Assembly (NCBI GenBank): GCA_024278175.1
Contig: JAJRTS010000006.1
Coordinates: 41,036 to 105,035 of the forward strand
Direction of reading: 5' to 3'
Length of the DNA stretch: 64,000 nt
Origin: Gemmatimonadales bacterium
GTDB taxonomy: Bacteria; Gemmatimonadota; Glassbacteria; GWA2-58-10
The translations under genes and the position numbers were made by a program. Numbering within the stretch: the first letter of the stretch is position 1; each line of letters starts with the position of its first letter. Positions 6,742 through 43,944 of the stretch are shown here, piece by piece. The notes under the pieces are model-generated. The model saw nothing but the letters and a program-made list of their open reading frames with translations. It was not told the DNA's origin and ran no database searches.

Positions 6742-6777
6742 AAAATATATCTGTGTTGTCGGCGGCCGTGGACAGTA

Positions 6778-8766: not shown

Positions 8767-8799
8767 GCTTGTTCTTTGTCTTAGGTGGAGTGCCGGAAG

Positions 8800-24426: not shown

Positions 24427-25188
24427 GTGGCGGAGAAAATATTTTTATTAACCAACGACGACGGCCACAGGGCGGTGGGATTACGTGTCCTGGCCAATAT
24501 TCTGAAACGGTTCGGCAGGGTAGTGATTGTCGCTCCCGAGACCGAGCAGAGCGCCTGCAGCCACGCGATCACCCTGCACCGTCCACTGCGGATGAAACAG
24601 TTCGCTCCGGAGTGCTACGCCGTGGACGGCACCACCAGCGATTGCGTGCTGCTGGCCAGTCAGCGTCTGCTGGCCGATCGCAAGCCGGACATGGTGTTCA
24701 GCGGAATCAATCACGGGCCGAACCTGGGCGATGACATAACCTACAGCGGCACGGTGGCCGGTGCGTTCGAGGGCAGATTGTTCGGAGTGCGCTCGATGGC
24801 TGTCAGCAGCGGGGACATGGCCCGGTTCGAGGACGAGCGCTGCCTGCGGATGCTGGCCGGGATTATCGAGCGGGCGCTGAGCGAGGATTGGGAGGACGAC
24901 GTTCTGCTCAACGTAAACCTTCCGCCGAGCAACCGGGAACTCAAGGGTGTGAAACTCACCTGCCTGGGACGTAGCCATTACGCCGAGAGCGTTATCGAGA
25001 AAACCGACCCCCGCGGCCAGACTTACTACTGGATAGGCGGGGTCAACTCCGAGTGGTTCGGCGCGCGGAACTCCGATTTCCGCGCGGTGGATAAAGGCTA
25101 TATCAGTGTCACCCCCCTGCATCTTGATTTAACCCACTACCCGAGCCTGAGTAAATTCGGTTCTCTGGAAGCGGGCGGCGAGGACTGA
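24427..25188 (+). CDS. surE: 5'/3'-nucleotidase SurE (GTG start)
   Basis: N-terminal LLTNDDG motif and SurE fold signatures (GINHGPNLG). Confidence 0.85.
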   Translation: MAEKIFLLTNDDGHRAVGLRVLANILKRFGRVVIVAPETEQSACSHAITLHRPLRMKQFAPECYAVDGTTSDCVLLASQRLLADRKPDMVFSGINHGPNLGDDITYSGTVAGAFEGRLFGVRSMAVSSGDMARFEDERCLRMLAGIIERALSEDWEDDVLLNVNLPPSNRELKGVKLTCLGRSHYAESVIEKTDPRGQTYYWIGGVNSEWFGARNSDFRAVDKGYISVTPLHLDLTHYPSLSKFGSLEAGGED

Positions 25189-25222
25189 TCCCGCGGCGTA
25201 GCTTGATCGTAAGGAGGAATAA

Positions 25223-25891
25223 CTGGGCCAGGCAAACGGCAATCAAAACGCTAAACTGGTAGACCTGCTTGCCGGCAGCGGTATCACGGACCGCCGGGTA
25301 CTCGGCGCAATCGGCGCGGTGCCCCGCCATCTGTTCGTGCCAGAGGCGCTGCGGGGCAAGGCTTACGCCAACACCAGCCTGCCGATCGGCGATGGGCAGA
25401 CGATCAGCCAGCCGCTGACAGTGGCCGGGATGTTGCAGATGCTGCGGCTCACGGGGGCTGAGCGCGTGCTGGAAGTGGGTACGGGTAGCGGCTACCAGGC
25501 CGCTCTGCTGGCCCGGCTCTGCGAGCAGGTGTTCACGGTGGAGCGGATCGAAAGCCTGGGCCGCCAGGCGCGCAGAGTGTTGGACAGTCTGGGTATTTTT
25601 AACGTGAACGTGCGTATCGGCGACGGGACGATGGGCTGGAGCCGTTATCAGCCCTACGATGCGATCGTGATCGCCGCGGCGGGTCCCTCGCCGCCCCGCG
25701 TGTTGCTGGAGCAACTGGCTCCCGGCGGCAGGATGGTGATGCCCGAGGGTGGCAGCCAAGGTGCGCGGATAGTGCTGGTGGAGCGGTGTGAGAATGGTTA
25801 TACGCGGACCTCGGGCGGGCAGTGCCGGTTCGTGCCACTGATCGGAAAGGAAGCCTGGAGCGATGAGTCATCGGCAGCAAACGGCGGATAG
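25223..25891 (+). CDS. pcm: protein-L-isoaspartate O-methyltransferase
   Basis: VPRHLFVP and SAM motif I VLEVGTGSGYQAALLA. The ORF tool starts at GTG 25319, but the conserved N-terminal region extends upstream to the stop at 25220. No ATG/GTG/TTG is available there, so a CTG at 25223 preceded by AAGGAGG is the only candidate. The start is uncertain. Confidence 0.75.
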   Translation: MGQANGNQNAKLVDLLAGSGITDRRVLGAIGAVPRHLFVPEALRGKAYANTSLPIGDGQTISQPLTVAGMLQMLRLTGAERVLEVGTGSGYQAALLARLCEQVFTVERIESLGRQARRVLDSLGIFNVNVRIGDGTMGWSRYQPYDAIVIAAAGPSPPRVLLEQLAPGGRMVMPEGGSQGARIVLVERCENGYTRTSGGQCRFVPLIGKEAWSDESSAANGG

Positions 25892-27028: not shown

Positions 27029-28276
27029 CTATTTATCGGAAATAAGCAATGCAAGGCCCGCGGCAACCAGGCAGGCGATTCCCGCCGGAGCAAATGCCAT
27101 TAAGAATGAGCCGGTTGAATCCCTGACAAATCCGCCAAGCATCGGGCCGGCTATTCCTCCAATTCCATAAGCTGTAAAGACAAATGGATAGTTGGATGCA
27201 ACGTTCTTTGTGCCGAATAATTTAGCTGTTGCCACTGGAAACAGTGCAAAGTTGCCTCCAAAGTTAAAGCCAATCAAAGAAGCGTATACTGCAAGCATTA
27301 ACGGCGTTGTTCCCATCTTGTAGAATGTAAGCATCAGGAAACCCTGGATAACACACATGTAAAACAATGACATCTTAGGACCAACCCAGTCAGACACTTT
27401 GCCCCATACGATCCGGCCCAGGCCGTTAAAGATAGCATACCATGCCATTGCGGTTCCCGCGGCGGCTCCGGCGGCCGCCATCGGCAAACCTGAAGCTTGC
27501 AAAGAATCGAGCCCAAATAATTTGATAGTACCAATAACCATCAACCCGGCCATTCCACTAAAGGTAAATATGAGCCAGATTGTCCAGAAACTGGACTTGC
27601 CAAGCATCTTTTTCCAACTGAACTCAATAGATTTTTCAGCCTTTTTCTCTTTTTCAGCCTTTTTTTCAACTGGGCCCTCAACCTGATAGTCGGCAGGAGG
27701 ATCTATCATCCAGATTGAGCCGATAAGAACCATTACCATGAATGCAATTCCGTAATACAGGAAAACACTCTGGACGCCAAGCTTGTCGATCAAGCCAAAC
27801 CACGATCCGGCTACTTTAACCCAGATTGTTGCTCCAAAGCCGAATCCTGCAACCGCGAGACCTGAAACGAGACCTTTCTTGTCGGGAAACCAACTCATGC
27901 CAACAGCGATTGGAACGACATATGCCATGCCGATTCCAGCTCCGCCAATAATTCCTATCGTTATTAATTGGATGATAAAGGAATTACCCAGTAACGCTCC
28001 CAGGATATAACCGGCTCCAAGAGTAATGCCTCCGGCAATTGCTGTCCGGCGCGGGCCTACTCTCTTCATCCTGAGGCCCGAGAAAATCATCACTACGGCA
28101 AATGTAAAAAGCCCGGCGGAAAAAATGGCCTGGGTCTGCGGAGTAGTAAAGTTATAAGGTGCTTCCTTAAGCGCCCTGGTAAAAACCGACCACGCATAAA
28201 TGGCGCCTAAAGCCAGTTGAATCAATATTGCACCAAAAACAACAAACCATCTGTTAATAGTTTTGCTTTGTTCCAT
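27029..28276 (-). CDS. MFS transporter, OFA (oxalate/formate antiporter-like) family
   Basis: Twelve TM helices with a central hydrophilic loop. GC content is markedly lower than the neighbours (about 48%). Confidence 0.75.
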   Translation of the reverse strand: MEQSKTINRWFVVFGAILIQLALGAIYAWSVFTRALKEAPYNFTTPQTQAIFSAGLFTFAVVMIFSGLRMKRVGPRRTAIAGGITLGAGYILGALLGNSFIIQLITIGIIGGAGIGMAYVVPIAVGMSWFPDKKGLVSGLAVAGFGFGATIWVKVAGSWFGLIDKLGVQSVFLYYGIAFMVMVLIGSIWMIDPPADYQVEGPVEKKAEKEKKAEKSIEFSWKKMLGKSSFWTIWLIFTFSGMAGLMVIGTIKLFGLDSLQASGLPMAAAGAAAGTAMAWYAIFNGLGRIVWGKVSDWVGPKMSLFYMCVIQGFLMLTFYKMGTTPLMLAVYASLIGFNFGGNFALFPVATAKLFGTKNVASNYPFVFTAYGIGGIAGPMLGGFVRDSTGSFLMAFAPAGIACLVAAGLALLISDK

Positions 28277-28370: not shown

Positions 28371-30308
28371 CTATTCGTTTCCGCTGCCGGCACTGGCCAG
28401 CGAATCGGCCAGGCGGTAGGCGTGGCGCGCCTGTTCGCCCCGGCCAAGCTCTTCCAGCAGACGGCCCATCAGGCTGTACGTATCCGCTGTCGGTCGAACC
28501 CTGTTGGCCACGGCAACGAAGTCGAGCGCCCGCTCGGGCTGTCGCTTGTCCTGCCAGTAGATCATGGCCAGGCTGAGGCTCGCCGCGTAGAGCTGTTCCA
28601 CGTTCTCGGTGATCAAGCGCTTGTAATGTTCCACCGCCTCATCCGTGCGCCCGGCCTGGAACAGGTTGGCCGCCAGCCGGCCCTCTATCTTGCGCGGATC
28701 AGCGTTGTCGGCCAGCCGGCTTTTCAGCAGTCCTATCGCTTCTTCCATCTTGCCCCTGGAGTAAAGCACTCCCTCCAGGGCCAGGATTATTTCGGTCTGG
28801 TTGGGTCTGTATGCCAATGTTTTGCGCAATAAATTCTCGGCGTCTTCCAGCCGGTTTTGTTCCCTGTAAATATCGCACATGATCAGAATGCTGTTGAAAT
28901 CGATGGGGTTGATCGCAAGGCCCCGGTTGTAGTTGCGCAGCGCCGCCTCGAGATTGTCCATGTTGAAATACGTCCAGCCCAGATTGAAATAGGCATAGGC
29001 ATAGCTGTTGTCGCACTCCACCGCCCGATCCAGGACCTTGCGCGCGGAACTGAAACGATGGGCCTTGTTCAGGCGTGCTCCCAGCAGGTTGTAGTGGAAA
29101 GCGTCCTCCGGGCGAACAGGCGTGGGAAACTCCTCCAGCAGGCTGTCTACCTGCGCCAGGCTGGTTGCCTGCATCAGGTCGCTGGCGAGTGGCTGGAACC
29201 GGTCGTAGCGCAGCTGGCGTTGACGGTAGAGCCACGTATTCCACACCAGGGCCAGCCCGATCGTGGCCAGGGCGATCTCGCGCCTGCGTGGGGCGCTCAG
29301 GCGCCGTTGGACCTCTTGTGCGCCGAATGCGAACGCGGCGAACATTACCGCCGGGGCCAGCAGGTACGTCCATTGTCCGCCTGCCAGCAGGTACGTCAGC
29401 GAACTCAGCGCCAGAAAAGCCGTCGCCAGGAGGGGGCGGAAAAACAGCACGCCAACCACGAACGGCGCCATGCTGATCGCATCAAGCGGCCGTCCGGTTA
29501 CCCAAAAATGCACCACCGCCAGCACGGCCAGAAAACCCGCCAGCGCCACATGCACGCCCCACTTGCGCCAGTTGCCTTTCGACTTGTCCGCGCCCGCGGC
29601 CACGGTCCAGGGGGTAATTTGCGGTCCGTCCACGGCGATCCCCCAGACCAGCAGGGCGATCATCGCAAAATGCCAGAGCTCGTTGGGACTGTACGGCAGC
29701 CATGGGCCCAGGTCATCCAGCTTGAGATGGGTCAGCATGTGGAGCGGGAATAGCAGCGGCAGCGCGAACGCAAGCCGGCCCCGTACGGCGCGATGGCGGA
29801 TCAGCAGGAACACGGCCAGGAAATCCACGGCAACACTGAGCCAGGCCACGATCCCCACGAACGGGGTCTCGACGAAATAGGGGTTCTTGATCGGGAAAAC
29901 CCAGACCCACCACTGCGCCGCGGCCGCCTCCACGGCGTAGGCGACAGCGCCCATCATCAGGCCCGCCAGCCCGATCAGCCGGTAGAGGCCGATTTTAGCC
30001 TGGCCCCGGCGGCCCAGGACCCACTCCGCCGTGCTCCAGCAGAGGTAGAGCGCGAATATCCAGCCGATACACTCCTGCAGCGATGCGTTCCCCAGCCTGA
30101 TCGCCGGCCGCAGGAACAGGTAGGGCAGAGTGTCGCCTTTCAGGAACGTGGTGATTATCCAGAAGATCGTGTTCCCACGCAGCAGACCGAAACCGAAACA
30201 GAGGCCGAAAAAGGCGATTGTAGCACTCCGGCCGCGGTAGCGCCACGAATGCAGGAACATCATCACCAGCAACAGACTGCTCGGAATCAACAACAACAGG
30301 TGCATCAC
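28371..30308 (-). CDS. polytopic membrane protein with C-terminal TPR repeats
   Basis: About 380 aa of multi-TM N-terminal region, followed by five or more TPR units (AYAYFNLGWTYFNMDNLEAALRNYNRGLAINP...). Confidence 0.6.
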   Translation of the reverse strand: MMHLLLLIPSSLLLVMMFLHSWRYRGRSATIAFFGLCFGFGLLRGNTIFWIITTFLKGDTLPYLFLRPAIRLGNASLQECIGWIFALYLCWSTAEWVLGRRGQAKIGLYRLIGLAGLMMGAVAYAVEAAAAQWWVWVFPIKNPYFVETPFVGIVAWLSVAVDFLAVFLLIRHRAVRGRLAFALPLLFPLHMLTHLKLDDLGPWLPYSPNELWHFAMIALLVWGIAVDGPQITPWTVAAGADKSKGNWRKWGVHVALAGFLAVLAVVHFWVTGRPLDAISMAPFVVGVLFFRPLLATAFLALSSLTYLLAGGQWTYLLAPAVMFAAFAFGAQEVQRRLSAPRRREIALATIGLALVWNTWLYRQRQLRYDRFQPLASDLMQATSLAQVDSLLEEFPTPVRPEDAFHYNLLGARLNKAHRFSSARKVLDRAVECDNSYAYAYFNLGWTYFNMDNLEAALRNYNRGLAINPIDFNSILIMCDIYREQNRLEDAENLLRKTLAYRPNQTEIILALEGVLYSRGKMEEAIGLLKSRLADNADPRKIEGRLAANLFQAGRTDEAVEHYKRLITENVEQLYAASLSLAMIYWQDKRQPERALDFVAVANRVRPTADTYSLMGRLLEELGRGEQARHAYRLADSLASAGSGNE

Positions 30309-30361
30309 TCACTCCAGGCTCTATAAATTACCAGCGGCCCCGCGGCGGGCGCCAATCGTGG

Positions 30362-33300
30362 TTAATTCCCCGGGGCTGGCGGCGGCGGCTGTTGCAGGCG
30401 GCGCAGAAGCCGCAGGTATTTATCCGCCTCCTCCGGCCGCCCCATCTTATCATAAGTGAGCGCCAGGTTATTGTAGGCGGTCGGCTGTAGCGGGTTGAGC
30501 TCGATTGAGCGCTTGTAGTATCTCACGCTCTGTTCGTAGTCTCCCCGGTTGGTCAGGATCACGCCCAGGTTCAGACACGCCAGCGGGTTGAACGGGTCTT
30601 TCTCCAGACTGAGGCGGTAGAGCCTCTCGGCCTCGTCGCGGTTGCCGCGCTTCAGCTCCAGGTTGCCGAGGTTGAAAATCGCCGAGCCGTAGTCCGGGCT
30701 GGCGCTGATCGCGCGGCGCAGCAGCTTCTCGGCGGCGGACAAGTCCCCGGCGCGGTAGCGCACCAGGCCCAGGTTCAGCATCGTCTGGGGGCTGGCCGGG
30801 TTAAGCTTGAGCGCCCTGCGGAAGTAGCGTTCGGCCTGGGTTTCCAGCCCCTGGTTGCTGGCGCAGACGCCGAGCTGGAACCAGCTCTGGGCGTGCTCGG
30901 GGATAATCCGGGTTACCTGGCCGAACCACTGCCGCGCGGTTTCCAGCTCCCCACGGGAGTAGTAATATTGACCGAGCTGGTAGCGCACCACGAAATCGCC
31001 GGGGTTTTGCCTGGCGATTGCCAGCAGCGAATCGGCGTCCGGGGCTGGCGGGTTCGCGAAATGACGGATGTAGTCGTCCGCCGGGTTACGGGCGAGCGCC
31101 CTGCGATAAAGGTTGATCGAGGCCGCCGGCTGCTGGAATACCCAAGCGGCGAACTTGCCCTCGTAGAAATCGATCCGCGGCTCGTACCAGTGATTTATCC
31201 TCTCCACGAGCGAGAGCATACTGTCGGCCGGGGCATCGCCTCCGTTCCACTGCGTGTAACCGGTAATCGGCTCCAGGTTGTCGATCATCCAGTGGTAGGT
31301 ATCCATCGGCACCGTGGGGGCCATCGTGCGGCTGAACTCGATCACCGGGCGGCTGTCGGTGTTGAGCGGGGCGTCAGCGGTGAGTTCCCGCAGCTTGCGC
31401 GGCCCCATCATGAACAGCGAGGCCAGCGAGAGCGGATTGTCCAGGAATACCTCGGCCAGATCGGCCCGCACTTTGGGCTGGCCAAGCAGCCGCCGCCAGC
31501 GCGGGTAGTCGATTACGGTTTCCTCGCTGGTGCCCAGCAGGATCACGTTGGCCGGGTTGCACCACCACAGGCTGCTGTTGGGGAAGACTTCCACGAAAGA
31601 GCGCAGCAGGCTCTTGAATTCTCTCAGGGTAAGCCCGTTGGTGGGCAGCCAGGCACAGACAGTGCCGCCGGGCTTGAGGGCGCGACGGCAGAGCTGGTAG
31701 AAATCCATCGTGTAGAGCATCGGACTCAGCTTGGGATGGATCGCGTTGAAGCTGATCACGTCGTACTCTTCATTGCTGGTCAGGATCAGGTTGCGCCCGT
31801 CGTTGAAGACGATTTTTACATTCGGGCTGTCGAGCACCCCGTGGTTCTCCGGCAGGAAAAACTCCGCTGTCGAGGCTTCCTCCGGCACCAGCTCCACGCA
31901 CTCGATCCTCGGCAGGTCGTAGCGGGTGGCGGTGTAGAGCGTGCTGCCGAAGCCGAAACCCACCACCAGCATACTCTTCGGGTCGGGGTGGAACAGGATC
32001 GGCAGGTGGGAGAGCAGCTTGTGGATCACGATATCGTCGAAACCGGTGTAGGCCGTGCTCTCGCCGTTGATATTCAGTTCCCTGTTCCCGTCGGTGTTGC
32101 GCAGCACGGCCACGCTGGCCTCGGTGGTCTCGTTGACGTAGATGATTTCCTTGCCCGTGTTCGGCAGGCTGAAGCGCATTATCGGACCCATCGAGCCGGA
32201 AGCCACTACCCAGACCAGCACGGCTCCCAGCACGGCGGGCCCCGCGATTGCCAGCCGCGCGCGCAGGGGGCCTGGGCCGCTTTCCAGTTTCAGCGCCCAC
32301 AGCGCCAGACCGGCGCCCAGCAGCGAGACAGCCACCAGCGAGCCGCTGATGCCCAGCAGGGGCAGCAGGAACATGCCCGCGGCCAGTGAACCGCCGATCG
32401 TGCCCACCGTGTTGGCCGCGTACAGCTTGCCTACCCCGCGCCCCAGCTCCTCACACCTGGAGATGAACAGCCGGTTGACCACCGGGAACGCCACGCCCAT
32501 CGCCAGCGTGGGGATTCCCAGCACCAGCAGGCAGAGCGAGAACTTGACCAGCGTAACCTGGTTCCAGCTGTTGGCCCCGAACCAGAGGTTGAGTTGCTGA
32601 TAGATCTCAGGCAGACGGCCGATCAGCGGCAGGCTGGCCAGCCCGGCTACCGCGATAACCCATTGCAGCGCGCCGAAAACGAGAAACAGCCTGCGGAATC
32701 TGTCGACCAGGGGAGTGACAGCCAGTGAGCCCAGCGCGATGCCGGTCAGAAAGCAGGTGAGGATGATCGTGAAGGCGTGGGTCGAGAGGCCGACGAAGTA
32801 GATCAGCGCCCGGGTCCAGAGCACCTGGTAGGCCATCGCGGCGAACCCGCTGATCGCGAATAACAGCGGTACCAGGTCGATAGAGCGCTTGGCATAGGCG
32901 GGGCTGTCCGCGCGCTTTTTCTTTTTTTCCACAGTGGTTTGTACGGGCGAGGCGGCCACCAGCACGACCAGGGCCAGTGCGGCGGCGATTAAGTTACCGC
33001 AGGCGGCGATTATCACGCTCACGGTTTCTCCGTAAAGCATGATCAGCCAGAAGCCGGTGGCCAGCGTGCCGATAACCGCGCCAGCCGTGTTGAGACCGTA
33101 GAGCGTACCGATCCGGGCGCCAAGCTCACCGCGCGAGCGCACCAGGTAGCGGCCCACCACGGGCAATGTTCCACCCATCAGCACGGTGGGCGCCAGCATG
33201 ATAGCCGCCCCGAGCAGGAGCCGGACCGAAAACAACAGGATCCCGCTGCTCATGCCCAGGCCGTGAAGGCTCGTGTAAACCCCATCGAGCACCGGCAGCA

Positions 33301-33577
33301 GGCCCAGGCTGATCGCAGCTCCGAGGACGGCGATACCAAGTTCGATCAGCACGTAAAGGCGCAACAGCTTGTCCGAGCGGTCGGCCAGCCGCCCGAACAG
33401 CCAGCTTCCCAGGGCCAGCCCGCCCATGAACACGGCCACCACCGTGCTGACCGCGTGGACCGTGTTGCCGAACACCAGGGCCAGTTTGCGCATCCATAAA
33501 ACCTCGAAAGCCAGACCGCTGGCGCCCGAGAACAGGAAACAGATGTAGAGCAGAACATTGATTCGCTGTCGATTCAT
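30362..33577 (-). CDS. fused MFS / spermidine-synthase-like membrane protein with C-terminal TPR repeats
   Basis: N-terminal 12-14 TM region, a central SpeE-like Rossmann domain (VVGFGFGSTLY...VELVPE...DVISFNAIHP), and a C-terminal TPR array. Start chosen at Met 33577 (MNRQRIN). Confidence 0.65.
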   Translation of the reverse strand: MNRQRINVLLYICFLFSGASGLAFEVLWMRKLALVFGNTVHAVSTVVAVFMGGLALGSWLFGRLADRSDKLLRLYVLIELGIAVLGAAISLGLLPVLDGVYTSLHGLGMSSGILLFSVRLLLGAAIMLAPTVLMGGTLPVVGRYLVRSRGELGARIGTLYGLNTAGAVIGTLATGFWLIMLYGETVSVIIAACGNLIAAALALVVLVAASPVQTTVEKKKKRADSPAYAKRSIDLVPLLFAISGFAAMAYQVLWTRALIYFVGLSTHAFTIILTCFLTGIALGSLAVTPLVDRFRRLFLVFGALQWVIAVAGLASLPLIGRLPEIYQQLNLWFGANSWNQVTLVKFSLCLLVLGIPTLAMGVAFPVVNRLFISRCEELGRGVGKLYAANTVGTIGGSLAAGMFLLPLLGISGSLVAVSLLGAGLALWALKLESGPGPLRARLAIAGPAVLGAVLVWVVASGSMGPIMRFSLPNTGKEIIYVNETTEASVAVLRNTDGNRELNINGESTAYTGFDDIVIHKLLSHLPILFHPDPKSMLVVGFGFGSTLYTATRYDLPRIECVELVPEEASTAEFFLPENHGVLDSPNVKIVFNDGRNLILTSNEEYDVISFNAIHPKLSPMLYTMDFYQLCRRALKPGGTVCAWLPTNGLTLREFKSLLRSFVEVFPNSSLWWCNPANVILLGTSEETVIDYPRWRRLLGQPKVRADLAEVFLDNPLSLASLFMMGPRKLRELTADAPLNTDSRPVIEFSRTMAPTVPMDTYHWMIDNLEPITGYTQWNGGDAPADSMLSLVERINHWYEPRIDFYEGKFAAWVFQQPAASINLYRRALARNPADDYIRHFANPPAPDADSLLAIARQNPGDFVVRYQLGQYYYSRGELETARQWFGQVTRIIPEHAQSWFQLGVCASNQGLETQAERYFRRALKLNPASPQTMLNLGLVRYRAGDLSAAEKLLRRAISASPDYGSAIFNLGNLELKRGNRDEAERLYRLSLEKDPFNPLACLNLGVILTNRGDYEQSVRYYKRSIELNPLQPTAYNNLALTYDKMGRPEEADKYLRLLRRLQQPPPPAPGN

Positions 33578-33844
33578 CCTTTTGACCTGTGAAAATTGTG
33601 CCGAGCGACGCAGGCAATTGCCGGGAAACAGATGGCCTACCGGCTCGAAACTAACAAATCGAACTGCAAATAACAAAATAAAATGGTATGCGCCCCACAC
33701 TGGCCGAGACTCGTGGTTGTTGTTAATATTGCAGAAATGCTTTAAAATTCGGTTGACATTCAAATATAAAAGAGTGGATAAATACTGGTTGTTCGGGTTG
33801 TGACCAGCCTGATTGCAGTATAACAGGAGTAATGTCAGCGATTA

Positions 33845-35737
33845 GTGTGGATCAGGCAGGCCGCGCTGGCTAGAAAACTCATCGGCGGTACTGAATTGTC
33901 AATGTTCGAAAACAGGAAAAAGAAAAAGAAAGGAACCTCCCGGGTATTGGCTCCGCCGTGGGAGAAAATGACACAGTCCGCGGAGGTCAATCTGGGGCCG
34001 GCCAGCAGGGTGGAGCTGGCCAAGGATATTTATACTATCCGTTCGACTGTCAACAATCCGGAATTGGTGCTCAATGAAAAATGGCAGATAATCGGCTACT
34101 CCAGCTCGTTTTTACCGCTCACGGGCAAGGTGACTGATCTGGCCCAGCGGCGAGCCTCGTTGAAGGAGTTTTTGACCGACGAGGATTTCGAGAAAATTCT
34201 CGATTACCAACGGGCGGTGGAGCGTCTGGAGCATTTGCCCTATAACGAGGGCGAACCGTGGGAATTGCGCTACGAGGGTCCGGAGTCGGTTGACAGGATC
34301 GGCGAAACGTGGCTTTGTTCCGCCGGGGAAGACGAGAGCGGGTGGGACATTCTCGGGCAGGGGGGGCGCCGCCGGCTGATCCATCGGGCCAACCTGGAAG
34401 ATTCACGTGACTGCTATGCGATGTACTATCAGGAGTTCGGCAGAGCCGACGAGGATATCCGCCTGGAGTACATTACCCGGACTTCGCCCACCAAGGAGCA
34501 CATCCTGGACGTTTCCGCGGTTATTTCCGGTTCTCCGGGCAGCGTGTCTCACTACCCTGACATCACGGGTTACTCGATCTGCACCGGCTCGGCCTGGAAC
34601 ACGGTGGGGCGCCTGCAGCGGATGTGCGTCGATATAGTTTCCCGCCCGGAAGTACTGAAACCGGCCGCCGCGTACAAGATCCAGATCGAACGCACCGGCG
34701 GCCGGCTGATCAGAAGGCTGACGGATTTGTCCAGTGGCGTGGAGTCCGAGCCGCTGCAAATGATCGATCCTCACGCGCTATACGACTTTACCAATCATGT
34801 GGGATTCACAACCTTTGCCGGCGACCTGGAGATATACGACATTAAACTTTTTACGCGCAAGAGCATGTTCAGCCTCGATCAGTTCAAGCTGACTTTCGAC
34901 ATGGACGTGCAGTTGCGCGACCCGAATCTGGCGGGCAGGGTGTTCAAGCTCAAGATCGGCCGCGATGTGCGGCAGAATATGTCGCTTACCAGGATGATGT
35001 TCGAGGACATCACCGAGCGGGTGAAAATCGAAAACGAGTTGAAACGCAGCCGTCAGCAACTGCGTGAACTGGCACTTCATCTGCAAATGGTACGGGAGCA
35101 GGAGCGGCGGATGATCGCCAGGGAAATTCACGACGAGCTGGGTCAGGATCTCACTGCCCTGCAACTGGATCTGCACGGGATGAAAAAACGGATGCCCGAT
35201 GACATGCCGCAGTTGCAGGCGAAAGCCGATTCGATGTTGCGCCTGATCGATGTTACCAACCGCTCCGTACAGAGGATATCAACCTACCTGCGCCCGGCGT
35301 TGCTGGACGATCTTGGCTTGACCGCGGCGATCGAATGGCAGTTGGAAGAATTTGCCGGACGGACCGGGATTAAATGCGAGCTTCAGATCGAAGCCGATGA
35401 GAGAGGGCTGGAGGATGAGCTCTCCACGGCTATTTTCAGGATATTCCAGGAAACCCTGACCAATATCGCCCGCCATGCCGAGGCAAAGCGCGCCTGGGTC
35501 AGCCTGGTGCGCCAGGGCGGCTGCCTGGTGCTGGAAGTGCGCGACAACGGCAGGGGGATCACCAGAGCGCAGATGGAGCATTCCCGTTCGTTCGGGGTGA
35601 TCGGTATGCGCGAGCGGCTCTATCCGTGGGGCGGGGAGGTTGATTTCCAGGGGGAGCAGGGTAAGGGAACCACCGTGAGGGTAAGCGTCAAGTTGCCCGA
35701 GGACGGAGAAGAAGATGATCAAGATTCTGATAGCTGA
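33845..35737 (+). CDS. cytoplasmic sensor histidine kinase (HisKA_3 + HATPase_c) with an uncharacterized ~400-aa N-terminal domain
   Basis: H-box REIHDELGQDLTALQL (NarX/DegS-type HisKA_3) and GHKL ATPase motifs (RDNGRGI, GVIGMRER). No TM helices. Start possibly Met 33902. Confidence 0.8.
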   Translation: MWIRQAALARKLIGGTELSMFENRKKKKKGTSRVLAPPWEKMTQSAEVNLGPASRVELAKDIYTIRSTVNNPELVLNEKWQIIGYSSSFLPLTGKVTDLAQRRASLKEFLTDEDFEKILDYQRAVERLEHLPYNEGEPWELRYEGPESVDRIGETWLCSAGEDESGWDILGQGGRRRLIHRANLEDSRDCYAMYYQEFGRADEDIRLEYITRTSPTKEHILDVSAVISGSPGSVSHYPDITGYSICTGSAWNTVGRLQRMCVDIVSRPEVLKPAAAYKIQIERTGGRLIRRLTDLSSGVESEPLQMIDPHALYDFTNHVGFTTFAGDLEIYDIKLFTRKSMFSLDQFKLTFDMDVQLRDPNLAGRVFKLKIGRDVRQNMSLTRMMFEDITERVKIENELKRSRQQLRELALHLQMVREQERRMIAREIHDELGQDLTALQLDLHGMKKRMPDDMPQLQAKADSMLRLIDVTNRSVQRISTYLRPALLDDLGLTAAIEWQLEEFAGRTGIKCELQIEADERGLEDELSTAIFRIFQETLTNIARHAEAKRAWVSLVRQGGCLVLEVRDNGRGITRAQMEHSRSFGVIGMRERLYPWGGEVDFQGEQGKGTTVRVSVKLPEDGEEDDQDSDS

Positions 35738-36347
35738 CGACCATCCGATAGTCCGTAAGGGTCTGCGGGAAATACTGACCGAGACCAATGACGTGTTCGA
35801 TGTCCACGAGGCGGAAAACGGCCCGGAGGTACTGGAATTAATGGAGGGCGGGCAGTACGACGTACTGGTGCTGGATATCTCGATGCCCGGCATCAGCGGC
35901 CTGGACGTGCTCAAACAGATTAAAAAGAAGAGCTGCTCGATTCCGATCCTGATTTTGAGCCGCCACCCGGAGCATCAGTACGCGGTGCGCTCGCTACGAG
36001 CGGGCGCCAGCGGATATCTTACCAAGGAAAGCGCACCGCAGGAGCTTTCCAGCGCTATCCGGAAACTGGCCCGGGGCGGTAAGTACGTCAGCGCCTCGAT
36101 GGCCGACCAGTTGCTTGATTACTTCAATGATGATTCCAGCAAAAGGCCCCACGAAAAGCTCTCCGACCGTGAGTTCCAGGTGATGCAGATGATCGCTTCC
36201 GGCAAAACCGTGGGTGAGATTGCCGAGGAGATGCTGCTGAGCGTGAACACGATCAGCACCTACCGGATGCGGGTACTGGAAAAAATGAACCTGGAGAACA
36301 ACGCGCAGATTATGTACTACGCTATGAATGAAGGACTTATCAGCTAA
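35715..36347 (+). CDS. NarL/LuxR-family response regulator
   Basis: REC domain (ADDH, D at VLDISMP, K) and a LuxR HTH (LSDREFQVMQMIASGKTVGEIA). Overlaps the HK stop by 23 nt. Confidence 0.9.
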   Translation: MIKILIADDHPIVRKGLREILTETNDVFDVHEAENGPEVLELMEGGQYDVLVLDISMPGISGLDVLKQIKKKSCSIPILILSRHPEHQYAVRSLRAGASGYLTKESAPQELSSAIRKLARGGKYVSASMADQLLDYFNDDSSKRPHEKLSDREFQVMQMIASGKTVGEIAEEMLLSVNTISTYRMRVLEKMNLENNAQIMYYAMNEGLIS

Positions 36348-36741
36348 GCCCCTCGCCAATTGATTGAACCTCCCTGCAAGCCCCTTTTCGCCTATAGTAC
36401 GAACCACTACAAGCCATTCGGACAAACTGCCCGCTTAAAATAGTAATCCAACGACATATTTTTTTAAGATTGAGTGTTAAATCATTAAATGTCAGGCCGG
36501 TGATGTTGCCCCGGCCCAATCGTCTTTAACGGCGGGAAAGGGAGTGGCGGCATAGACGATACTTTGTGAGCCTCCTAGCTGGAAATTCATATCACCGATC
36601 TTACCGGAATTTACTTTCATTGCGGAATCTCGTGCGGCCAGTGCGGGAAGAAGAAGCCGTGCGCGGATTACTCTCGGTGCCTGTTCGAGGGCCTTTATGC
36701 TGCTGATAATAGCAGGCGGTTTCTGCATATCACGAAAATAG

Positions 36742-37125
36742 GTGCAAATGAGAGTTGTAATCGCCGACGATTCTGAAATCATGCGGGAACATCTGGCGGG
36801 CGCCCTGTCCGGCCTTGAAGGTATCGAAATAGTCGGCAGCGCCGGCAGTGGTGCTCAGGCGCTCGAATCCATCAGAAAATTAAACCCTGACGTAGTGGTG
36901 CTTGACATCAGGATGCCGGGTGGCAGCGGGATCGAGGTCCTGGAGCGGATCAAGCAGGACGCCCGTTGTCCGGTGGTGATCATGTTCACCAACTATCCAT
37001 TTCCCCAATACCGCAAGAAATGCGAACAGGCGGGAGCGGATTTCTTTTTCGAAAAAACCAGCGAATCCCATCTGGTGATTGAAACCCTGGAATCACTGAC
37101 CAGCCGCTTTCGGGCAAGTGGATAA
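36742..37125 (+). CDS. stand-alone CheY-like receiver domain protein
   Basis: REC motifs (IADD, VVLDIRMPGGSG, and the K in FFEK). No output domain. Confidence 0.8.
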   Translation: MQMRVVIADDSEIMREHLAGALSGLEGIEIVGSAGSGAQALESIRKLNPDVVVLDIRMPGGSGIEVLERIKQDARCPVVIMFTNYPFPQYRKKCEQAGADFFFEKTSESHLVIETLESLTSRFRASG

Positions 37126-37407: not shown

Positions 37408-40400
37408 ATGTCCATGAATGGTAAAGCTTACAGCTTAAGAGCCGCACTGCTCGGCCTGACGCTGGCATTGCTGGCAGCCGGTTCGGCTTTCGCCCAGGCG
37501 CTTAACACGGCGAAACTCGAGGGCGTTGTCAGAGATGCCGACACCGGCCAGCCGCTGGCCGGGGTACAGGTCGTGGTCGAGGGGACCCGGCTCGGCAACG
37601 TAACCAACAACGATGGTTACTATTTCATTCTCAACGTGTCTCCAGGCCGGCGTGGCGTCACTTTCAGCTATACCGGTTACCAGAAAACCACGGTTGCCAA
37701 CCAGTTGTTGCTGGCGGGTCAGACTATGACAGTGGATTGCAATCTCAGCTCCACCGTGGTCCAGCTCGAAGGGATCGTGATCGAGGGACAAAACGACATC
37801 CTGATCCCCCGTGACAACACGGCTTCCAAGCAGCGCATCACCAGTGAGAAGCTGACCGGGGCGCCCGCCACCAGGCTGGAAGACCTGATGGTGCTCGAGG
37901 CCGGCGTATCGCTCGGCGGCGAGGGCGGCAAGGCCCGCGGCCTTCGTATCCGCGGCGGCCGTCTGGGCGAGGAGGCGATGGTGGTTGACGGCGTGACGGT
38001 GCGTAACTACACCGCCGACCCCTACCGCACCGGTACTTTCTGGGTTTACACTCAGGAAGAGGGTTCGCTGAGCGAGGACACCACGCCGCTGGAGTTCTCC
38101 ACGAGCGCGGTGGAAGAAGTCGATATTATCACAGGCGGTTTCCAGGCCGAGTACGGTAACGCCCAGAGCGGTATCGTCAATATCGTGACCAAGGAAGGCG
38201 GACCTGATCTCAGGGGTAACGCTCGCTGGACCACCGACGAGGCCAATCCCCGTACCTCCGACTATGGTTACAACCAGCTTACCACCAGCGTGGGCGGCCC
38301 GGTACCGTTGATCCCTCACCTGAACTTCCAACTTACCGGTGAGCTGCAGGGCGTGGAGGATATCAGTCCCACTCACGCCAGCGAGGGTTTCCGCGGAGTA
38401 AACCAGCAGTTTGTCGACCGCCTGAACTGGGCCGTGCGTAACGACCCGGTCTACGGAGATCCCAAGTGGTGGAACGATGCGGGCTACGACGAGCCCCGTC
38501 CCGCCTTTATCCTGAGCGAGATGGTTTCCGCCCGCGAGATCTGGGCCGGGCGGATGGGAGAGGACTTTTTCTCCGGCCATCCCTGGGTTTCGCAGGGAGT
38601 TTACTCTCCGCCCAACCCCGTGCGGATCCCGGATAACTGGCAGGACAGGAACCTGCTCAACGGCAAGCTGACCTATTCGCCGATCCGGGGCCTGAAATTC
38701 TTAATGAGCGAGAACTTCTCCCGCTACCAGCGTCAGTGGCCTTCGGAGTCGGACGCCTACTGGCGTCAGGGCTGGGTAACGCCCGACATGCTCGGCAAGC
38801 GCATGTGGTCCACGCTCAAGGGCGACATGATCGCCGGGCCCGACACGTTTGCCTACGTGCCGATCGGCCTGGGACGGCGCACGCGTACGGGCCAGTTCCT
38901 GGCCGGTGTCAACTGGGACTTCTACCAGAGCGCCGAGCGCAGCGCATCGCTGCAGTTCCGGTTCATGAACATGCGCGTACAGGATATCAACTCCTCGAAC
39001 ATCAAGGAGAACTGGCGGCGTGATCCTCAGTTCCTCACCTTCAACGTGCACGATCTGCCGTTCATGGTCGAGACGTTTCCGGGCAGGGATCACCTGAACA
39101 ATCCCGAGGACGCGGCCTGGTACTATACCGATGGTACCGGCGTGTGGAACCGGGATCATACCTACTGGACTCCGTTCGGCTATTCGACCAACTCGCAGCT
39201 CTACTATCTGAACTACCGTTACCTGCGCGAGGACCAGAACACGTTCAAGCTGGATATGGAGTTCCAGCTCGACCGCCACAACCGGATGAAATTCGGCTGG
39301 CAGGGCACGTTCTTCCAGAACAACCAGTTCCAGGTCCGCCAGCAGCCGCGAATCCTGGACAACGAGTTCGATTACCGTCCGAGACTGTTCGCCGCTTACA
39401 TTCAGAACCGTACCGACCTCGGCGATTTCGTGTTCGACTACGGCCTGCGCTGGGACCAGTTCCAGCCGCGTGACAACTGGGGCTTTCGCAACAACGACCA
39501 GTACGGCGAGCGTTACTTCCCCAAAGACCAGAGCGAGTTATCGCCGCGCTTCAACGTGGCCTTCCCGGTTACCGACAAGGCCCAGATGCGTTTCAGCTAC
39601 GGCGTTTTCACCCAACTGCCCAGCTTCACGTTCATCTTCAGCGGCAATAACCCCGGCGGTCTGGGGTACTCCAGGACTGATGCTTTCGAGGCCGGCCTGA
39701 GTTACCTGCTCTCCGATGAGACGGTGCTGGATTTTACGGGATTCTACCGCGATGCCGACGGCAACGTGTCCTCCGGCTCGTTCTTCCGTGATTATACCCA
39801 GGCCGTTACCGGCCGCTGGGTGCGCGGAATCCAGGGCGCCTTCACCAACAGCGACCGCGCTAACGTGAAGGGTTTCGACCTCACGCTGCGCAAGCGTTTC
39901 AGTAACCACTACTCGCTGAACCTGATCTACACCCTGCAGTTCTCGCGGACCACCGGTTCGAGCTACCAGGCGTCGACCAACGACGGACTGCGGCCCGCGC
40001 GCGAGGACAGGACCCATAAGCTGTCGGCGCACTTGAGCTACATGACCGACGAAGACGTTTTCGCCGGCACCTGGGCCAACAAGGTCTTCAAGAACGTAAG
40101 GGCCTACCTGTTGCCCAGCGTGATGAGCGGCAAGCCCACCGGTGTGTACGTGCCGTATACGGCTGCCAACGCAAGTCTCAACCGCATGCGCGGCCGCTGG
40201 GATTACAACGTCGATCTCAGGCTGAACAAGGAATTTGGCCTGTCCGGCAGAAAAAGGATCAGCTTGTTTGCGGAAGTTTACAACCTGACCAACCGCAAGC
40301 TGCCGCAGCCGTATCCTTCCGGATACACGTTCCAGGGTTATCGGTACGCAACCGGTGGAGTCGAGTACAAGTGGGACACCGCTCCCTCTGATGCAAAATA

Positions 40401-40554
40401 CCTGTTCGTTCGTGATTTCGACGGGGACGGCGTACTCACCATCGATGAAGCGGCCAGGGGCGCAATTGCCGACGCCTTTGCCAGGGCCACGGACAATTTC
40501 AGAGCATGGGGCCTGGCCCGTCAGATCAGAAGCGGTATCGAGTTCACCTTCTGA
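37408..40554 (+). CDS. TonB-dependent-receptor-like outer membrane protein (CarboxypepD_reg + plug + beta-barrel)
   Basis: Signal peptide, carboxypeptidase-regulatory-like domain (GVVRDADTGQPLAGVQVVVEG), plug region, long barrel, and C-terminal aromatic residue (EFTF). Confidence 0.7.
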   Translation: MSMNGKAYSLRAALLGLTLALLAAGSAFAQALNTAKLEGVVRDADTGQPLAGVQVVVEGTRLGNVTNNDGYYFILNVSPGRRGVTFSYTGYQKTTVANQLLLAGQTMTVDCNLSSTVVQLEGIVIEGQNDILIPRDNTASKQRITSEKLTGAPATRLEDLMVLEAGVSLGGEGGKARGLRIRGGRLGEEAMVVDGVTVRNYTADPYRTGTFWVYTQEEGSLSEDTTPLEFSTSAVEEVDIITGGFQAEYGNAQSGIVNIVTKEGGPDLRGNARWTTDEANPRTSDYGYNQLTTSVGGPVPLIPHLNFQLTGELQGVEDISPTHASEGFRGVNQQFVDRLNWAVRNDPVYGDPKWWNDAGYDEPRPAFILSEMVSAREIWAGRMGEDFFSGHPWVSQGVYSPPNPVRIPDNWQDRNLLNGKLTYSPIRGLKFLMSENFSRYQRQWPSESDAYWRQGWVTPDMLGKRMWSTLKGDMIAGPDTFAYVPIGLGRRTRTGQFLAGVNWDFYQSAERSASLQFRFMNMRVQDINSSNIKENWRRDPQFLTFNVHDLPFMVETFPGRDHLNNPEDAAWYYTDGTGVWNRDHTYWTPFGYSTNSQLYYLNYRYLREDQNTFKLDMEFQLDRHNRMKFGWQGTFFQNNQFQVRQQPRILDNEFDYRPRLFAAYIQNRTDLGDFVFDYGLRWDQFQPRDNWGFRNNDQYGERYFPKDQSELSPRFNVAFPVTDKAQMRFSYGVFTQLPSFTFIFSGNNPGGLGYSRTDAFEAGLSYLLSDETVLDFTGFYRDADGNVSSGSFFRDYTQAVTGRWVRGIQGAFTNSDRANVKGFDLTLRKRFSNHYSLNLIYTLQFSRTTGSSYQASTNDGLRPAREDRTHKLSAHLSYMTDEDVFAGTWANKVFKNVRAYLLPSVMSGKPTGVYVPYTAANASLNRMRGRWDYNVDLRLNKEFGLSGRKRISLFAEVYNLTNRKLPQPYPSGYTFQGYRYATGGVEYKWDTAPSDAKYLFVRDFDGDGVLTIDEAARGAIADAFARATDNFRAWGLARQIRSGIEFTF

Positions 40555-40612
40555 ACCCGGCTCGGTCAATTGTGCTACTGAACGTCAGTCTTGAATCGAC
40601 GGGAGAAAGATT

Positions 40613-43600
40613 ATGTTGAAAAACAGTAGAATACTTTTCACTCTGGCCACGATGGCCCTGGTGCTCTGCATGGCTGTGGACGGTTTCGCTCTGCAGACCC
40701 GGACCAGAAAATCCCAGGGTAATAATTTCGGCCTGGAGTTGAACCTCGGTGGCACCGTTTTAGCGGGGACCAGTGAATATCCCCGCGGGTCGGGGAACTC
40801 CATCCCTACTTTCGAGGGTGGCTGGGGGCACTTCCTGGCGGTAGCCAGGGACCTCGATGGCGACGGGTATGCTGAGGACACCCTCTATGGCCGCAGCCGT
40901 GGCCGTACCGTGGGTGGCCGCAGAGCGTCACTTGAAGCGATGGATCTTGTACTGGAAGGTTTCAATGCCGGCCATCGGATGGATCAGTGGATGGGCCGTG
41001 TGGAAAACAACGAGATCTGGAGCTCCCTTGACCCCGACAACCTCACGCGCTGGCCGGCCGAGTTCCGCGAAGGCCGTACGATGAGCGGCGCCCCGATCCT
41101 GTTTGGCCGCGAAACCATCGGCGCCATGCACTCGGACGCCTACAATCGCAGCTATCACGGATCGGTACCGCCTACAGGCGTTTCGCTTGAATACCAGTTC
41201 TATTTCCTCGATTTCGGTGAAAGCAACGATCTGGCTTTCGGCCATCTGTTTATCCGCAACATGAGCGAATACCTGAAATACAACGATAACCAGAGTTTCA
41301 GGGACCAGGTTGCCGCAACTCCCGATGGGCAGGTCTGGGACAGCTTCGCGCTGATGTATGTCGAAAACTACTTCGGTATCGGTTTCAGCACGACCGGGAT
41401 GGATGAAGGCTGGGCTTTCCATCCGGCTCGCGTGATCAAGTGCATGGTCGATCAGGACGGGCTGGAAGACGGTTTCACCAACGGCGGCATGGCTTTCATT
41501 ATCGGTTACACGCCGCTGAAGAATATGGAGTTCAAGGGCGAGACCGCCTACCTGTCCAACACCACCAACTTCCGCTGGAGCGCTGATTTCGGTATCTCGA
41601 AGGCGCTGGACATGGGTACGCGCTCCGATCCCGGGCATACCTTTCGCTGGGCTACCTGCTTGCAGCCGGATGGGACAGAAAGGGACATCTCCGACTTCTA
41701 CGGCGATGAGATCAGCCCCTACACCGGCCGCGCCCTTACCGGCAACCCCGGTGTGATCGTGCCCTCCGATTCCCGTTACAACCAATGGCTGTGGGGCCGC
41801 CAGGCCCGGATCAATTACCATGCCTGGAGCGGACTGCACCAGTTCGGTCCCCGCGATACCACCACCACCGATTTCGCGATCATGGCGGCTTATCCCACTA
41901 ATCCTCCGCTGGTGATGAAGCCCAACGATATCGCCAATATCGACGATCCCGACATCCAGGTCCAGCTCGCTCCTCTGGAGCGGATGCAGGACGTTGCAAA
42001 GATCGTTTACAAGGGCGGATATATTCTGCCTCAGACACCTGTGCCGCCCCCGCTGACTATCGTGCCGGGTGACAGAGAGGTGACGATTACCTGGAGCAAC
42101 GTTAACCTGAACACCCCGGATGAATACTATTATTTCATCCAGGATAATCCCGAAGTCGATCCCGAAGGCGTATACCGGGAGTACGATTTCGAGGGATATC
42201 GTCTTTATCGCAACTATGTGGGACCGAGCGACGCCCATTCCGAATTGATTTATGAATCCAGTCTGGGCGCGGGTGATCTTGCATTCCACTACGTGGACAC
42301 AAGGGACAAGGACGACCCGTACTACAGGATGCGTAACGGGCTAAAGATCTGGTACGCTCTCGTACCTTACGACCTGAACTACGATCCGGCCACGGGGGAC
42401 GAACTCAGCCTGCCTGATCCCGGGCAGTCGAAGGTTTGGAACCGCACGTTCCCGGAAGGTTACTACACGGTTCGGCCGCGCAGCGATGCAAGCAACTTCA
42501 AGCCTGCCGAAGTCGCCTCGATAACCTATCTGCCGAGCGCGGGAGAAGCGATCCAGGTAACTGAGGTGGCGCTGGCCGGTTCCGAGGGTATGATCACCGA
42601 GACCCCGAAGTTTCTCGAGCCTTATACCGACATTGCCGTCGAGGTCGTAAACAGTGAAAGGATAACCTCGGATCAGACGGTTTACCTCGCTGTTACGGGG
42701 ATGGGGCCTCATGGTGGTCTGGCCGGTAGCAGGACCGTGGTCCTGCAAGACGCCGGTGGCACCCTGGTCGATCCGTTCAAACAGAGCATTATGGTCAACG
42801 GCCGCGGCAGGGACTACAATAAAAGTCTTGCCTATTCCGCCGGTATGAGTGGTGACGGTATTTCATACTCGGTCAACATGTCGATCAGCCAGCAGACTAT
42901 TCGGAACATGCAGACCCAGATGGACCTGGGTGGTTACGGTGGTGATGTCTCTTTTGCCACTTACCGCTGGGGTGAAGGCTCGGGCGGACTTGTCTACAAC
43001 AGCGGTGGCTCAAATGCCGCCTACACCAGGGCCGGTGAGTTCAAGGTTACCTGGAGCGCCTCCGGCGGCGGCCTGACCTGTACGGTTCAGGACCTGACCC
43101 ACGGCAAGGCGATCCCCTTCAGCCCGTATATCGATGATGAGAACTGGGGATTCATCGTCGGTGGCGCTACGTATGCGGATATTACCGGAGACGCGGGCCG
43201 TGAATGGGGCGGCCCCAGCAACGTGCTGGTTCCGCAGAGTGAACGCAGCATCATGCTGGCCGAGACAGTCCCTGCCAATAATACGGAGGACTTCTACCTC
43301 TACGTTAACGGGCAGGCCTGGAAGTTCACCAATCTCAGCGCGATGCCGGCCTCCGGCACCGTTATGACGGTGATTACGGCATACGGCAGCTGGAACGGCG
43401 ACGGTACGGCTTTTACCCAGACACCGGAACCGATCTTTCCCGGTGACAAATGGCAAGTCATCATCAAGGCGATGAGTATGAGCACCGATGATATTGACCT
43501 GTCAAAAATCAGGGTCGTGCCGAATCCATACATCGCCAGTTCGATGCTCGATCAGTCCGGCGGCAGCCGCAGGATCGATTTCGTCAACCTGCCGGGCCGC

Positions 43601-43876: not shown

Positions 43877-43944
43877 TGAGGACGCGGTGTGAGCAGCTTA
43901 CTTAGCAAGCGTTCTTCCCATTCAAGAGTATATGGAGGTTAGTT

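Follow-up and report, generated by a model that had tools for sequence, protein, structure and literature searches.

In Arabidopsis spermidine synthase (SPDS), the aminopropyl amine is held by the Asp of the GGGDG motif, the catalytic Asp, and a Gln, while the catalytic Asp deprotonates putrescine, which is held by a further Asp and a Tyr (PMC6514230). Replacement of the GGGDG Asp by Ile abolished spermidine-synthase activity and conferred a weak methyltransferase activity, and the same change lowered the kcat of the Thermotoga maritima enzyme approximately 2000-fold (PMC3725402). The fungal protein NHMT (AN4663) has seven membrane helices, a beta sheet, a SpdS-like Rossmann domain, and a helical extension (PMC10349129; bioRxiv 10.1101/2022.10.03.510680). 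It resides in the endoplasmic reticulum, methylates the N-terminal His of secreted lytic polysaccharide monooxygenases, and has been automatically annotated as a spermidine synthase; it carries Ile at the D/E position of GxG(D/E)G and an essential S-adenosylmethionine (SAM)-binding Glu 18 residues later (PMC10349129). According to the same authors, human METTL13 also has a SpdS-like N-terminal methyltransferase domain (PMC10349129). Here, we describe two genes, A and B, in a 64,000-nucleotide stretch (the window) of the Gemmatimonadales bacterium assembly GCA_024278175.1 (contig JAJRTS010000006.1, positions 41,036 to 105,035). Gene A encodes a protein in which a SpeE-like domain is fused to a major facilitator superfamily (MFS) domain and a tetratricopeptide repeat (TPR) array, and gene B encodes a second membrane protein with a TPR array. 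A is a known kind of protein, and its pairing with B is what is new.

The closest relatives of the window, which has a G+C content of approximately 60%, were metagenome-assembled genomes (MAGs) named Candidatus Glassbacteria, a group that is mentioned in PMC11596202 and that recent genome-based classifications place within Gemmatimonadota. As the original prediction had it, positions 28371-33577 were occupied by two co-directional minus-strand open reading frames (ORFs), and this arrangement and the 1071-aa length of A were borne out by the ORFs and the starts of homologs. Gene A (30362..33577, minus strand; fused MFS/SpeE-like/TPR) starts at the ATG at 33577, the position at which its homologs also begin (consensus 'MRxI...FSGASGL'). 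Gene B (28371..30305, minus strand) was defined by its ORF, the starts of its homologs, and an AlphaFold2 (AF2) model, and encodes a membrane domain of about 12 helices followed by the TPR array. Its start was corrected to the ATG at 30305 from the listed GTG at 30308, because all 26 homologs opened with 'MH(L/F)LL'; B is therefore 644 aa long rather than the 645 aa first proposed, and an NCBI protein identical to its product (P0001) has the same length. The A-B spacer (30306..30361, minus strand) accordingly measures 56 bp and not 54 bp, and contains a GGAG ribosome-binding site ahead of the B start. The many homologs of each show that A and B are genuine genes rather than fortuitous ORFs. 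No terminator-like site was found on the minus strand of the spacer, although promoter and terminator scans gave scores no better than those of shuffled sequence. Judged from this layout, A and B are likely co-transcribed and the unit is probably an operon.

A survey from the side of B covered 16 species-representative loci, namely 11 from Glassbacteria/"Gemmatimonadales" MAGs and five from Acidobacteriota. Using tblastn, ten loci (L010-L017, L019, and the metagenome locus L003) were found to have A immediately upstream of a co-directional B; at only 44-68% protein identity between loci, the short spacing was kept, while the genes flanking the pair on both sides varied among the Glassbacteria loci. 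A was absent from two Glassbacteria loci, L018 and L020, which held second, shorter B paralogs from MAGs that also carried the pair. No A-type neighbor of B-type genes was detected in Acidobacteriota and the other loci (L004, L008, L009, and L021-L025), and no B-type neighbor of A-type genes was detected in three sampled non-Glassbacteria loci, where the NF037959 members, unlike A, had unrelated neighbors. By these comparisons, the A-B pair is a conserved unit that is restricted to the class Glassbacteria in the loci examined; the expectation that the two genes would be neighbors elsewhere held for ten other loci, all of them within this one class.

Several side observations concern the same loci. 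The second B paralogs (P0013, P0015, P0018, and P0025; L018, L020, and L026 8001-9578) were approximately 525-535 aa long, contained fewer TPRs, and did not lie beside A; the one in L026 was located among sugar-utilization genes, next to a receptor/PorV-like cluster. In Acidobacteriota, a membrane protein of about 365 aa follows a B-like membrane-plus-TPR gene (L004 11582-12673 and L024 9586-10719); the two copies were 60% identical, matched no family, and differed from A. L014 lies on the same contig as L001, a contig of 1.16 Mb on which an A ortholog (6575-9798) was called as two overlapping genes, an MFS protein of 509 aa and a SpeE-TPR protein of 575 aa, with approximately 110 residues missing from the tblastn match between the two calls. 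A frameshift in the assembly seems a better explanation than a true split of the gene.

A exceeded the cut-off of NCBIfam NF037959, "fused MFS/spermidine synthase" (128.1 bits vs. 40), and has the architecture of that family, with an MFS fold at the N-terminus and a SpeE-fold domain after it in the same polypeptide. The family is widespread and uncharacterized; A is one of its ordinary members, and nothing sets it apart from the others. The original description of the architecture as widespread but uncharacterized is upheld by more than 2300 matches and by literature searches aimed at NF037959 and at membrane-bound spermidine synthases, which returned no paper on NF037959. Poribacteria and KSB1 had many TPR-tailed members of 1040-1080 aa, and Planctomycetota had some as well.

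In the AF2 model of A (predicted local distance difference test score, pLDDT, 89.3; predicted template modeling score, pTM, 0.87), the MFS domain (residues 1-430; 32288..33577, minus strand) consists of 12 helices arranged as 6 + 6. Motif-A-like loops lie between transmembrane helices (TM) 2 and 3 ('GRLADRSDK', residues 62-70) and between TM8 and TM9 ('LVDRFRRL', residues 290-297), as in the MFS fold, and an 'EVLWxR' motif is present in both TM1 and TM7. The central loop (residues 209-229) is rich in Lys. Pfam MFS_1 matched weakly, at 32.9 bits against a gathering threshold of 33.4, and VMAT2 and other amine transporters were among the top fold neighbors. A 13th membrane helix (residues 437-460; 32198..32269, minus strand) was supported by the AF2 model, family hydrophobicity, and positive-inside counts; the MFS-like domain that had been anticipated is thus present, with 13 helices (6 + 6 and one more) in place of about 14. 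Next comes the SpeE-fold domain (residues 476-690; 31508..32152, minus strand), which comprises an N-terminal beta sheet and a Rossmann fold, matched Pfam Spermine_synth at residues 518-672 (E value 3e-17), and had genuine spermidine synthases as its best sequence and fold matches, so that the SpeE fold assigned to it at the outset is confirmed. A mostly helical linker in the model (residues 691-849; 31031..31507, minus strand), which had no Pfam match, leads to the TPR array (residues 850-1062; 30392..31030, minus strand), in which about six repeats are modeled as helix pairs and many Pfam TPR families, including TPR_1 and TPR_2, matched above threshold (residues 850-1060, E value ~1e-35).

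The SpeE-like domain of A shares the fold of SpeE (PDB 1uir, 3o4f, and 1inl), but it is fused to a membrane domain and is predicted to lie outside the cytoplasm. It has also lost the Asp of GGGDG, the two Asp residues of DSTDP, and, from the polyamine pocket, a Tyr and a Glu. These losses were established by aligning its residues with those of SpeE from E. coli and T. maritima and by column counts over 51 NF037959 members from several phyla. The GGGDG motif of SpeE reads G540-F541-G542-(M/F/L)-G544 across the family, with invariant Gly and Phe positions; the acidic position of GxG(D/E)G, which in SpeE binds the aminopropyl amine of decarboxylated SAM and keeps SAM out, is F543 in A and is Met in 28 members, Phe in 16, Leu in six, and Thr in one. 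In the 'Y(H/Q)E' motif, Tyr is replaced by Ser, Ile, or Val and Glu by Arg or Lys. The DSTDP loop reads (F/T)-(N/G)-(A/I)-I-H-P, in which the catalytic Asp (T. maritima D170) corresponds to N611 in A (Asn in 29 members, Gly in 21, and Ser in one), and the second Asp (T. maritima D173) to H614 (His in 42 members, Asp in six, Asn in two, and Tyr in one). Residues of the aminopropyl/polyamine pocket were replaced in all 51 members, the sole exception being the Asp at position 614 in six of them. On the other hand, E562 (ribose contact) and D593-G594 (adenine contact) were invariant in the family, and about 20 polar residues within or near the pocket were invariant across phyla, including H524, T546, E562, N578, D593, R595, Y605, D606, S618, and Y622. 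A also scored below the cut-offs of the SpeE equivalog models TIGR00417 (80.5 vs. 249.55), PRK00811 (84.5 vs. 260), and PRK03612 (133.6 vs. 472), the last of which, a seven-helix "polyamine aminopropyltransferase" model, aligned to residues 224-640.

Because the acidic residues for aminopropyl transfer have been lost across the 51 family members, we infer that the SpeE-like domain of A is not a spermidine synthase, and a polycationic acceptor is unlikely because four acidic pocket positions are now neutral or basic. The aminopropyltransferase-like reading and the polyamine-like substrate of the original prediction are not supported, since the residues that define aminopropyl transfer and polyamine binding are replaced throughout the family. 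The pocket resembles those of SAM- or adenosyl-binding proteins and not that of an aminopropyltransferase dependent on decarboxylated SAM.

By functional analogy with its published description, fungal NHMT would be the closest characterized analog of A. TM7-13, the SpeE-like domain, and the helical region of A, the portion to which the seven-helix PRK03612 model aligned, have the same layout as NHMT, in both proteins the D/E position of GxG(D/E)G is hydrophobic, the Glu follows at a spacing of 18 in NHMT and 19 in A, and both proteins have been automatically named spermidine synthase. The non-acidic F543 and the retained SAM-binding Glu (E562) of A correspond to the features that distinguish SpdS-like N-methyltransferases (PMC10349129, PMC3725402). 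NHMT differs from A in lacking an MFS domain and TPRs, and its seven helices are reported to be specific to filamentous fungi. METTL13 was not among the PDB sequence matches of A at an E value of 0.001 or lower.

The AF2 model of B (pLDDT 87.9) contains approximately 12 helices up to residue 380, followed by TPRs. The TPR array (residues ~383-640; 28389..29159, minus strand, for residues 383-639) was supported by Pfam TPR matches above threshold and by the model, and the assignment of TPR arrays to both C-termini was therefore correct; however, the likeness between the two tails, which had been called similar, is only generic, at 27% identity. The membrane domain of B (residues 1-365; 29211..30305, minus strand) belongs to no described family. 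Searches of five diverse members against Pfam at E values up to 10 yielded no credible match, with isolated sub-threshold matches to unrelated families in three members and none in the other two. Neither the B membrane domain nor six stand-alone members had an NCBIfam match at E values up to 1, and no match to the B membrane domain was found among PDB sequences at E values up to 10. It is unrelated to the MFS part of A (hhalign probability 0.2%), in agreement with the original statement that the two multi-helix domains differ. An internal duplication was rejected (hhalign probability 0.8%).

A profile search of 1.84 billion representatives identified 250 clusters with a B-type membrane domain, which occurred with TPRs (500-790 aa), with a sulfatase domain (800-836 aa), or as a stand-alone protein (~340 aa). 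Among 118 members, E126, W133, and W135 were invariant (118/118), G81-W82, W155, W132, and P61-Y62 were nearly invariant, and H19, R/K43, E94, D/E161, H189, and H193 (H189-x3-H193) were highly conserved. Most of the conserved residues lie in the 'WWxW' loop or where helices 3, 4, and 6 are predicted to reach the periplasm, a distribution suggestive of an enzyme or of a specific lipid- or glycan-binding site at the outer leaflet. The profile searches and alignments showed the membrane domain of B to be a distinct, unnamed family with enzyme-like conservation. The 'QEC' Cys and the HxxxH motif of B were not family-wide. Compared by eye, the motif sets of CREST/PAQR-like hydrolases, PAP2, CAAX proteases, exosortases, and di-iron His-box enzymes did not fit B.

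TMTC and PMT-type GT-C glycosyltransferases with C-terminal TPR arrays, in which the enzyme domain is a polytopic membrane domain and the repeats lie outside the cytoplasm, are architectural analogs of B; however, B did not match PMT_2 or any other GT-C profile, even at E values up to 10. In the characterized membrane-anchored proteins LtaS, EptA, and PbgA, the sulfatase-superfamily domain is extracytoplasmic. Three relatives of B (P0180, P0213, and P0222; L008 8001-10448) are similarly composed of a B-type membrane domain fused to a C-terminal sulfatase-superfamily domain, but they contain a B-type membrane domain of about 12 helices where LtaS and EptA have five helices, and B itself has no sulfatase domain. 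The sulfatase domain of these relatives, which is fused where B has its TPRs, matched CptA, MCR, LtaS, and YejM weakly, and Thr replaces the sulfatase Cys motif as read by eye. Five tandem stand-alone B-type paralogs were observed in another locus (L009 1-6335; GCA_041643025.1, JBGGHK010003884.1; hmmsearch E values 3e-19 to 8e-36), directly followed by a gene for a B12-binding radical SAM protein.

The topology of both proteins was predicted from helix parity and from counts of Lys and Arg in the loops, using the 51-sequence alignment for A. The mean number of Lys and Arg residues per loop of A was 1.9-5.5 on the predicted inside and 0-1.4 on the outside, alternating cleanly over 13 helices. 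The 13th segment was hydrophobic and uncharged across the family, although the best window of the Poribacteria-type proteins may overlap TM12. A is thus predicted to have its N-terminus inside and 13 helices, which would place the SpeE-like domain and the TPR array in the periplasm. In B, Arg-rich loops follow helices 1, 3, 5, and 7 and precede the last helix; from these positions, about 12 helices are predicted, with both the N-terminus and the TPR array outside. The relatives of B that carry a sulfatase-superfamily domain at the position of the TPRs independently support an outside location for this array.

Our preferred explanation, which we advance tentatively and consider possible but somewhat short of probable, is that A and B form a two-gene unit of Glassbacteria in the inner membrane, with their TPR arrays facing the periplasm for protein docking. 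The SpeE-like domain of A would be a methyltransferase-like or adenosyl-ligand-binding module, by analogy with NHMT, METTL13, and plant PMT; the acceptor that it bound or acted upon, on the periplasmic face of the membrane, would be something other than a polyamine. The fused MFS domain may supply this module with a small-molecule ligand or co-substrate from across the membrane, while the TPR arrays may retain a partner or substrate protein. B would either be an enzyme embedded in the membrane or handle lipids, working at the periplasmic leaflet with the same envelope target as A, a shared target being suggested by the operon-like pairing that is conserved in Glassbacteria. The envelope-facing membrane assembly of the original prediction is plausible given the predicted periplasmic location of the two TPR arrays, whereas the polyamine-like substrate proposed for that assembly is unsupported. 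A number of points weigh against our explanation. SAM is not known to occur in the periplasm, and a SAM-dependent enzyme located there would need a putative export step. The topology of A and B is predicted from just helix parity and charge bias, and the functions of both families are likewise read from sequence. Both fold searches with the full-length B model returned TPR matches only. Thr546, which was considered as a PMT-like marker, was dropped, as a Thr also occupies the equivalent position of the genuine T. maritima SpeE. No fusion of A and B domains (Rosetta-stone analysis) was found among 149 B-family representatives. Finally, the ten pair loci all belong to one class, so the adjacency could partly be inherited synteny.

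The alternative that survives best, although we judge it unlikely, is that the SpeE-like domain has lost catalysis and serves only to bind a ligand or as a structural element, with A and B being pure scaffolds or chaperones for envelope assembly, for example, of an outer-membrane or surface protein. The loss of the catalytic Asp residues, the long TPR arrays in both proteins, and the position of the pair near a cluster encoding a TonB-dependent receptor, a possible type IX secretion system (T9SS) cargo protein, and a PorV-like protein in several Glassbacteria loci are consistent with such a role, but the approximately 20 invariant polar residues of the pocket exceed what a scaffold usually needs. 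A proposal that goes further than our preferred explanation is that NF037959 would be the bacterial counterpart of NHMT, a family of membrane-integral SpeE-fold methyltransferases with a catalytic domain active in the periplasm, for which the MFS domain exports a SAM-like co-substrate and the TPRs capture exported proteins or some other envelope acceptor for N-methylation, with B, in Glassbacteria, being a membrane enzyme of a new kind that acts on the same target; we consider it quite unlikely in this full form. We regard as similarly doubtful that the SpeE-like domain works as a SAM-dependent methyltransferase in the cytoplasm, in which case the predicted topology would be wrong or the 13th helix would not span the membrane, and the TPRs would be cytoplasmic. 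SAM is a cytoplasmic compound, GxGxG, E562, and D593 are strictly conserved, and some TPR proteins, LapB among them, do act at the inner membrane from its cytoplasmic side; however, the clean charge alternation over 13 helices in 51 sequences argues against a cytoplasmic location, as do the uncharged hydrophobic 13th segment (with the above caveat for Poribacteria-type proteins) and the fusion of B-type membrane domains to sulfatase-like domains at the TPR position. An equally low probability is given to the functional independence of A and B, whose adjacency would then be synteny inherited within one class. This would agree with the confinement of all pair loci to Glassbacteria, the unrelated neighbors of A-type genes in the three loci sampled elsewhere, the different conserved 365-aa membrane protein that accompanies B-type genes in Acidobacteriota, and the lack of A/B fusions, whereas the order, strand, and short spacing of the pair have been kept at 44-68% identity while the flanking genes changed. 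Lastly, it is very improbable that A is a membrane-bound polyamine aminopropyltransferase joined to a polyamine transporter, with the pair linking polyamine chemistry to the envelope, since the best matches of the central domain to genuine spermidine synthases, the PRK03612 alignment, and the VMAT2-like fold neighbors of the MFS domain are opposed by equivalog scores far below the cut-offs, by the replaced pocket Asp, Tyr, and Glu (Asp at 614 in only 6/51), by the inactivation of spermidine synthases through mutation of the GGGDG Asp alone (PMC3725402), and by four neutral or basic positions that speak against a polycationic substrate.

The surroundings of the pair were also inspected. An AT-rich intergenic region of 267 bp (33578..33844) separates A from a divergent histidine-kinase gene and is the presumed promoter region. 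The divergent genes (33845-37125, plus strand) encode a HisKA_3 sensor kinase, a LuxR-type response regulator, and a single-domain receiver, and were common only to the closest locus (L010). Beyond the receiver, a three-gene cluster (37408-45156, plus strand) begins with a TonB-dependent receptor containing a CarboxypepD_reg domain; the second gene encodes a 1087-aa protein with a signal peptide and weak matches to T9SS C-terminal sorting domains (CHU_C, E value 0.015; Por_Secre_tail, E value 0.035), and the third encodes a FadL/PorV-like barrel protein (PorV, E value 2.8e-4, below threshold). A homolog of the receptor gene was directly divergent from and adjacent to A in four loci (L012, L013, L017, and L019) and lay within approximately 9 kb in L003/L026. 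This proximity points weakly to an outer-membrane connection of the pair, or may be plain synteny. Downstream of B, gene C (27029-28276, minus strand) scored 348 bits against the cut-off of 320 of an L-lactate MFS transporter equivalog, lay in a stretch with a G+C content of 0.49 compared with about 0.60, was absent from all other pair loci, and may have been recently acquired. As a lactate transporter equivalog absent from those loci, gene C was rejected as a third member of the module. Adjacent genes for SurE and protein-L-isoaspartate O-methyltransferase (24427-25891, plus strand) form an ordinary surE-pcm arrangement. Membership of an anti-phage defense system was rejected, as the PADLOC search yielded only a weak methyltransferase-domain match.

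Thousands of bacterial proteins bear the name "fused MFS/spermidine synthase" or "spermidine synthase". As the NF037959 branch appears to lack the residues for aminopropyl transfer, polyamine-pathway reconstructions that count such genes would be misled. If the outside-facing topology is true, the role of a periplasmic adenosyl-binding Rossmann domain, possibly fed by its fused transporter, becomes a concrete question, for which NHMT, the sole characterized membrane-anchored look-alike and a modifier of secreted proteins, provides a testable lead. B, for its part, adds a compact, unnamed polytopic family of approximately 250 clusters with an enzyme-like pattern of invariant Glu, Trp, and His.

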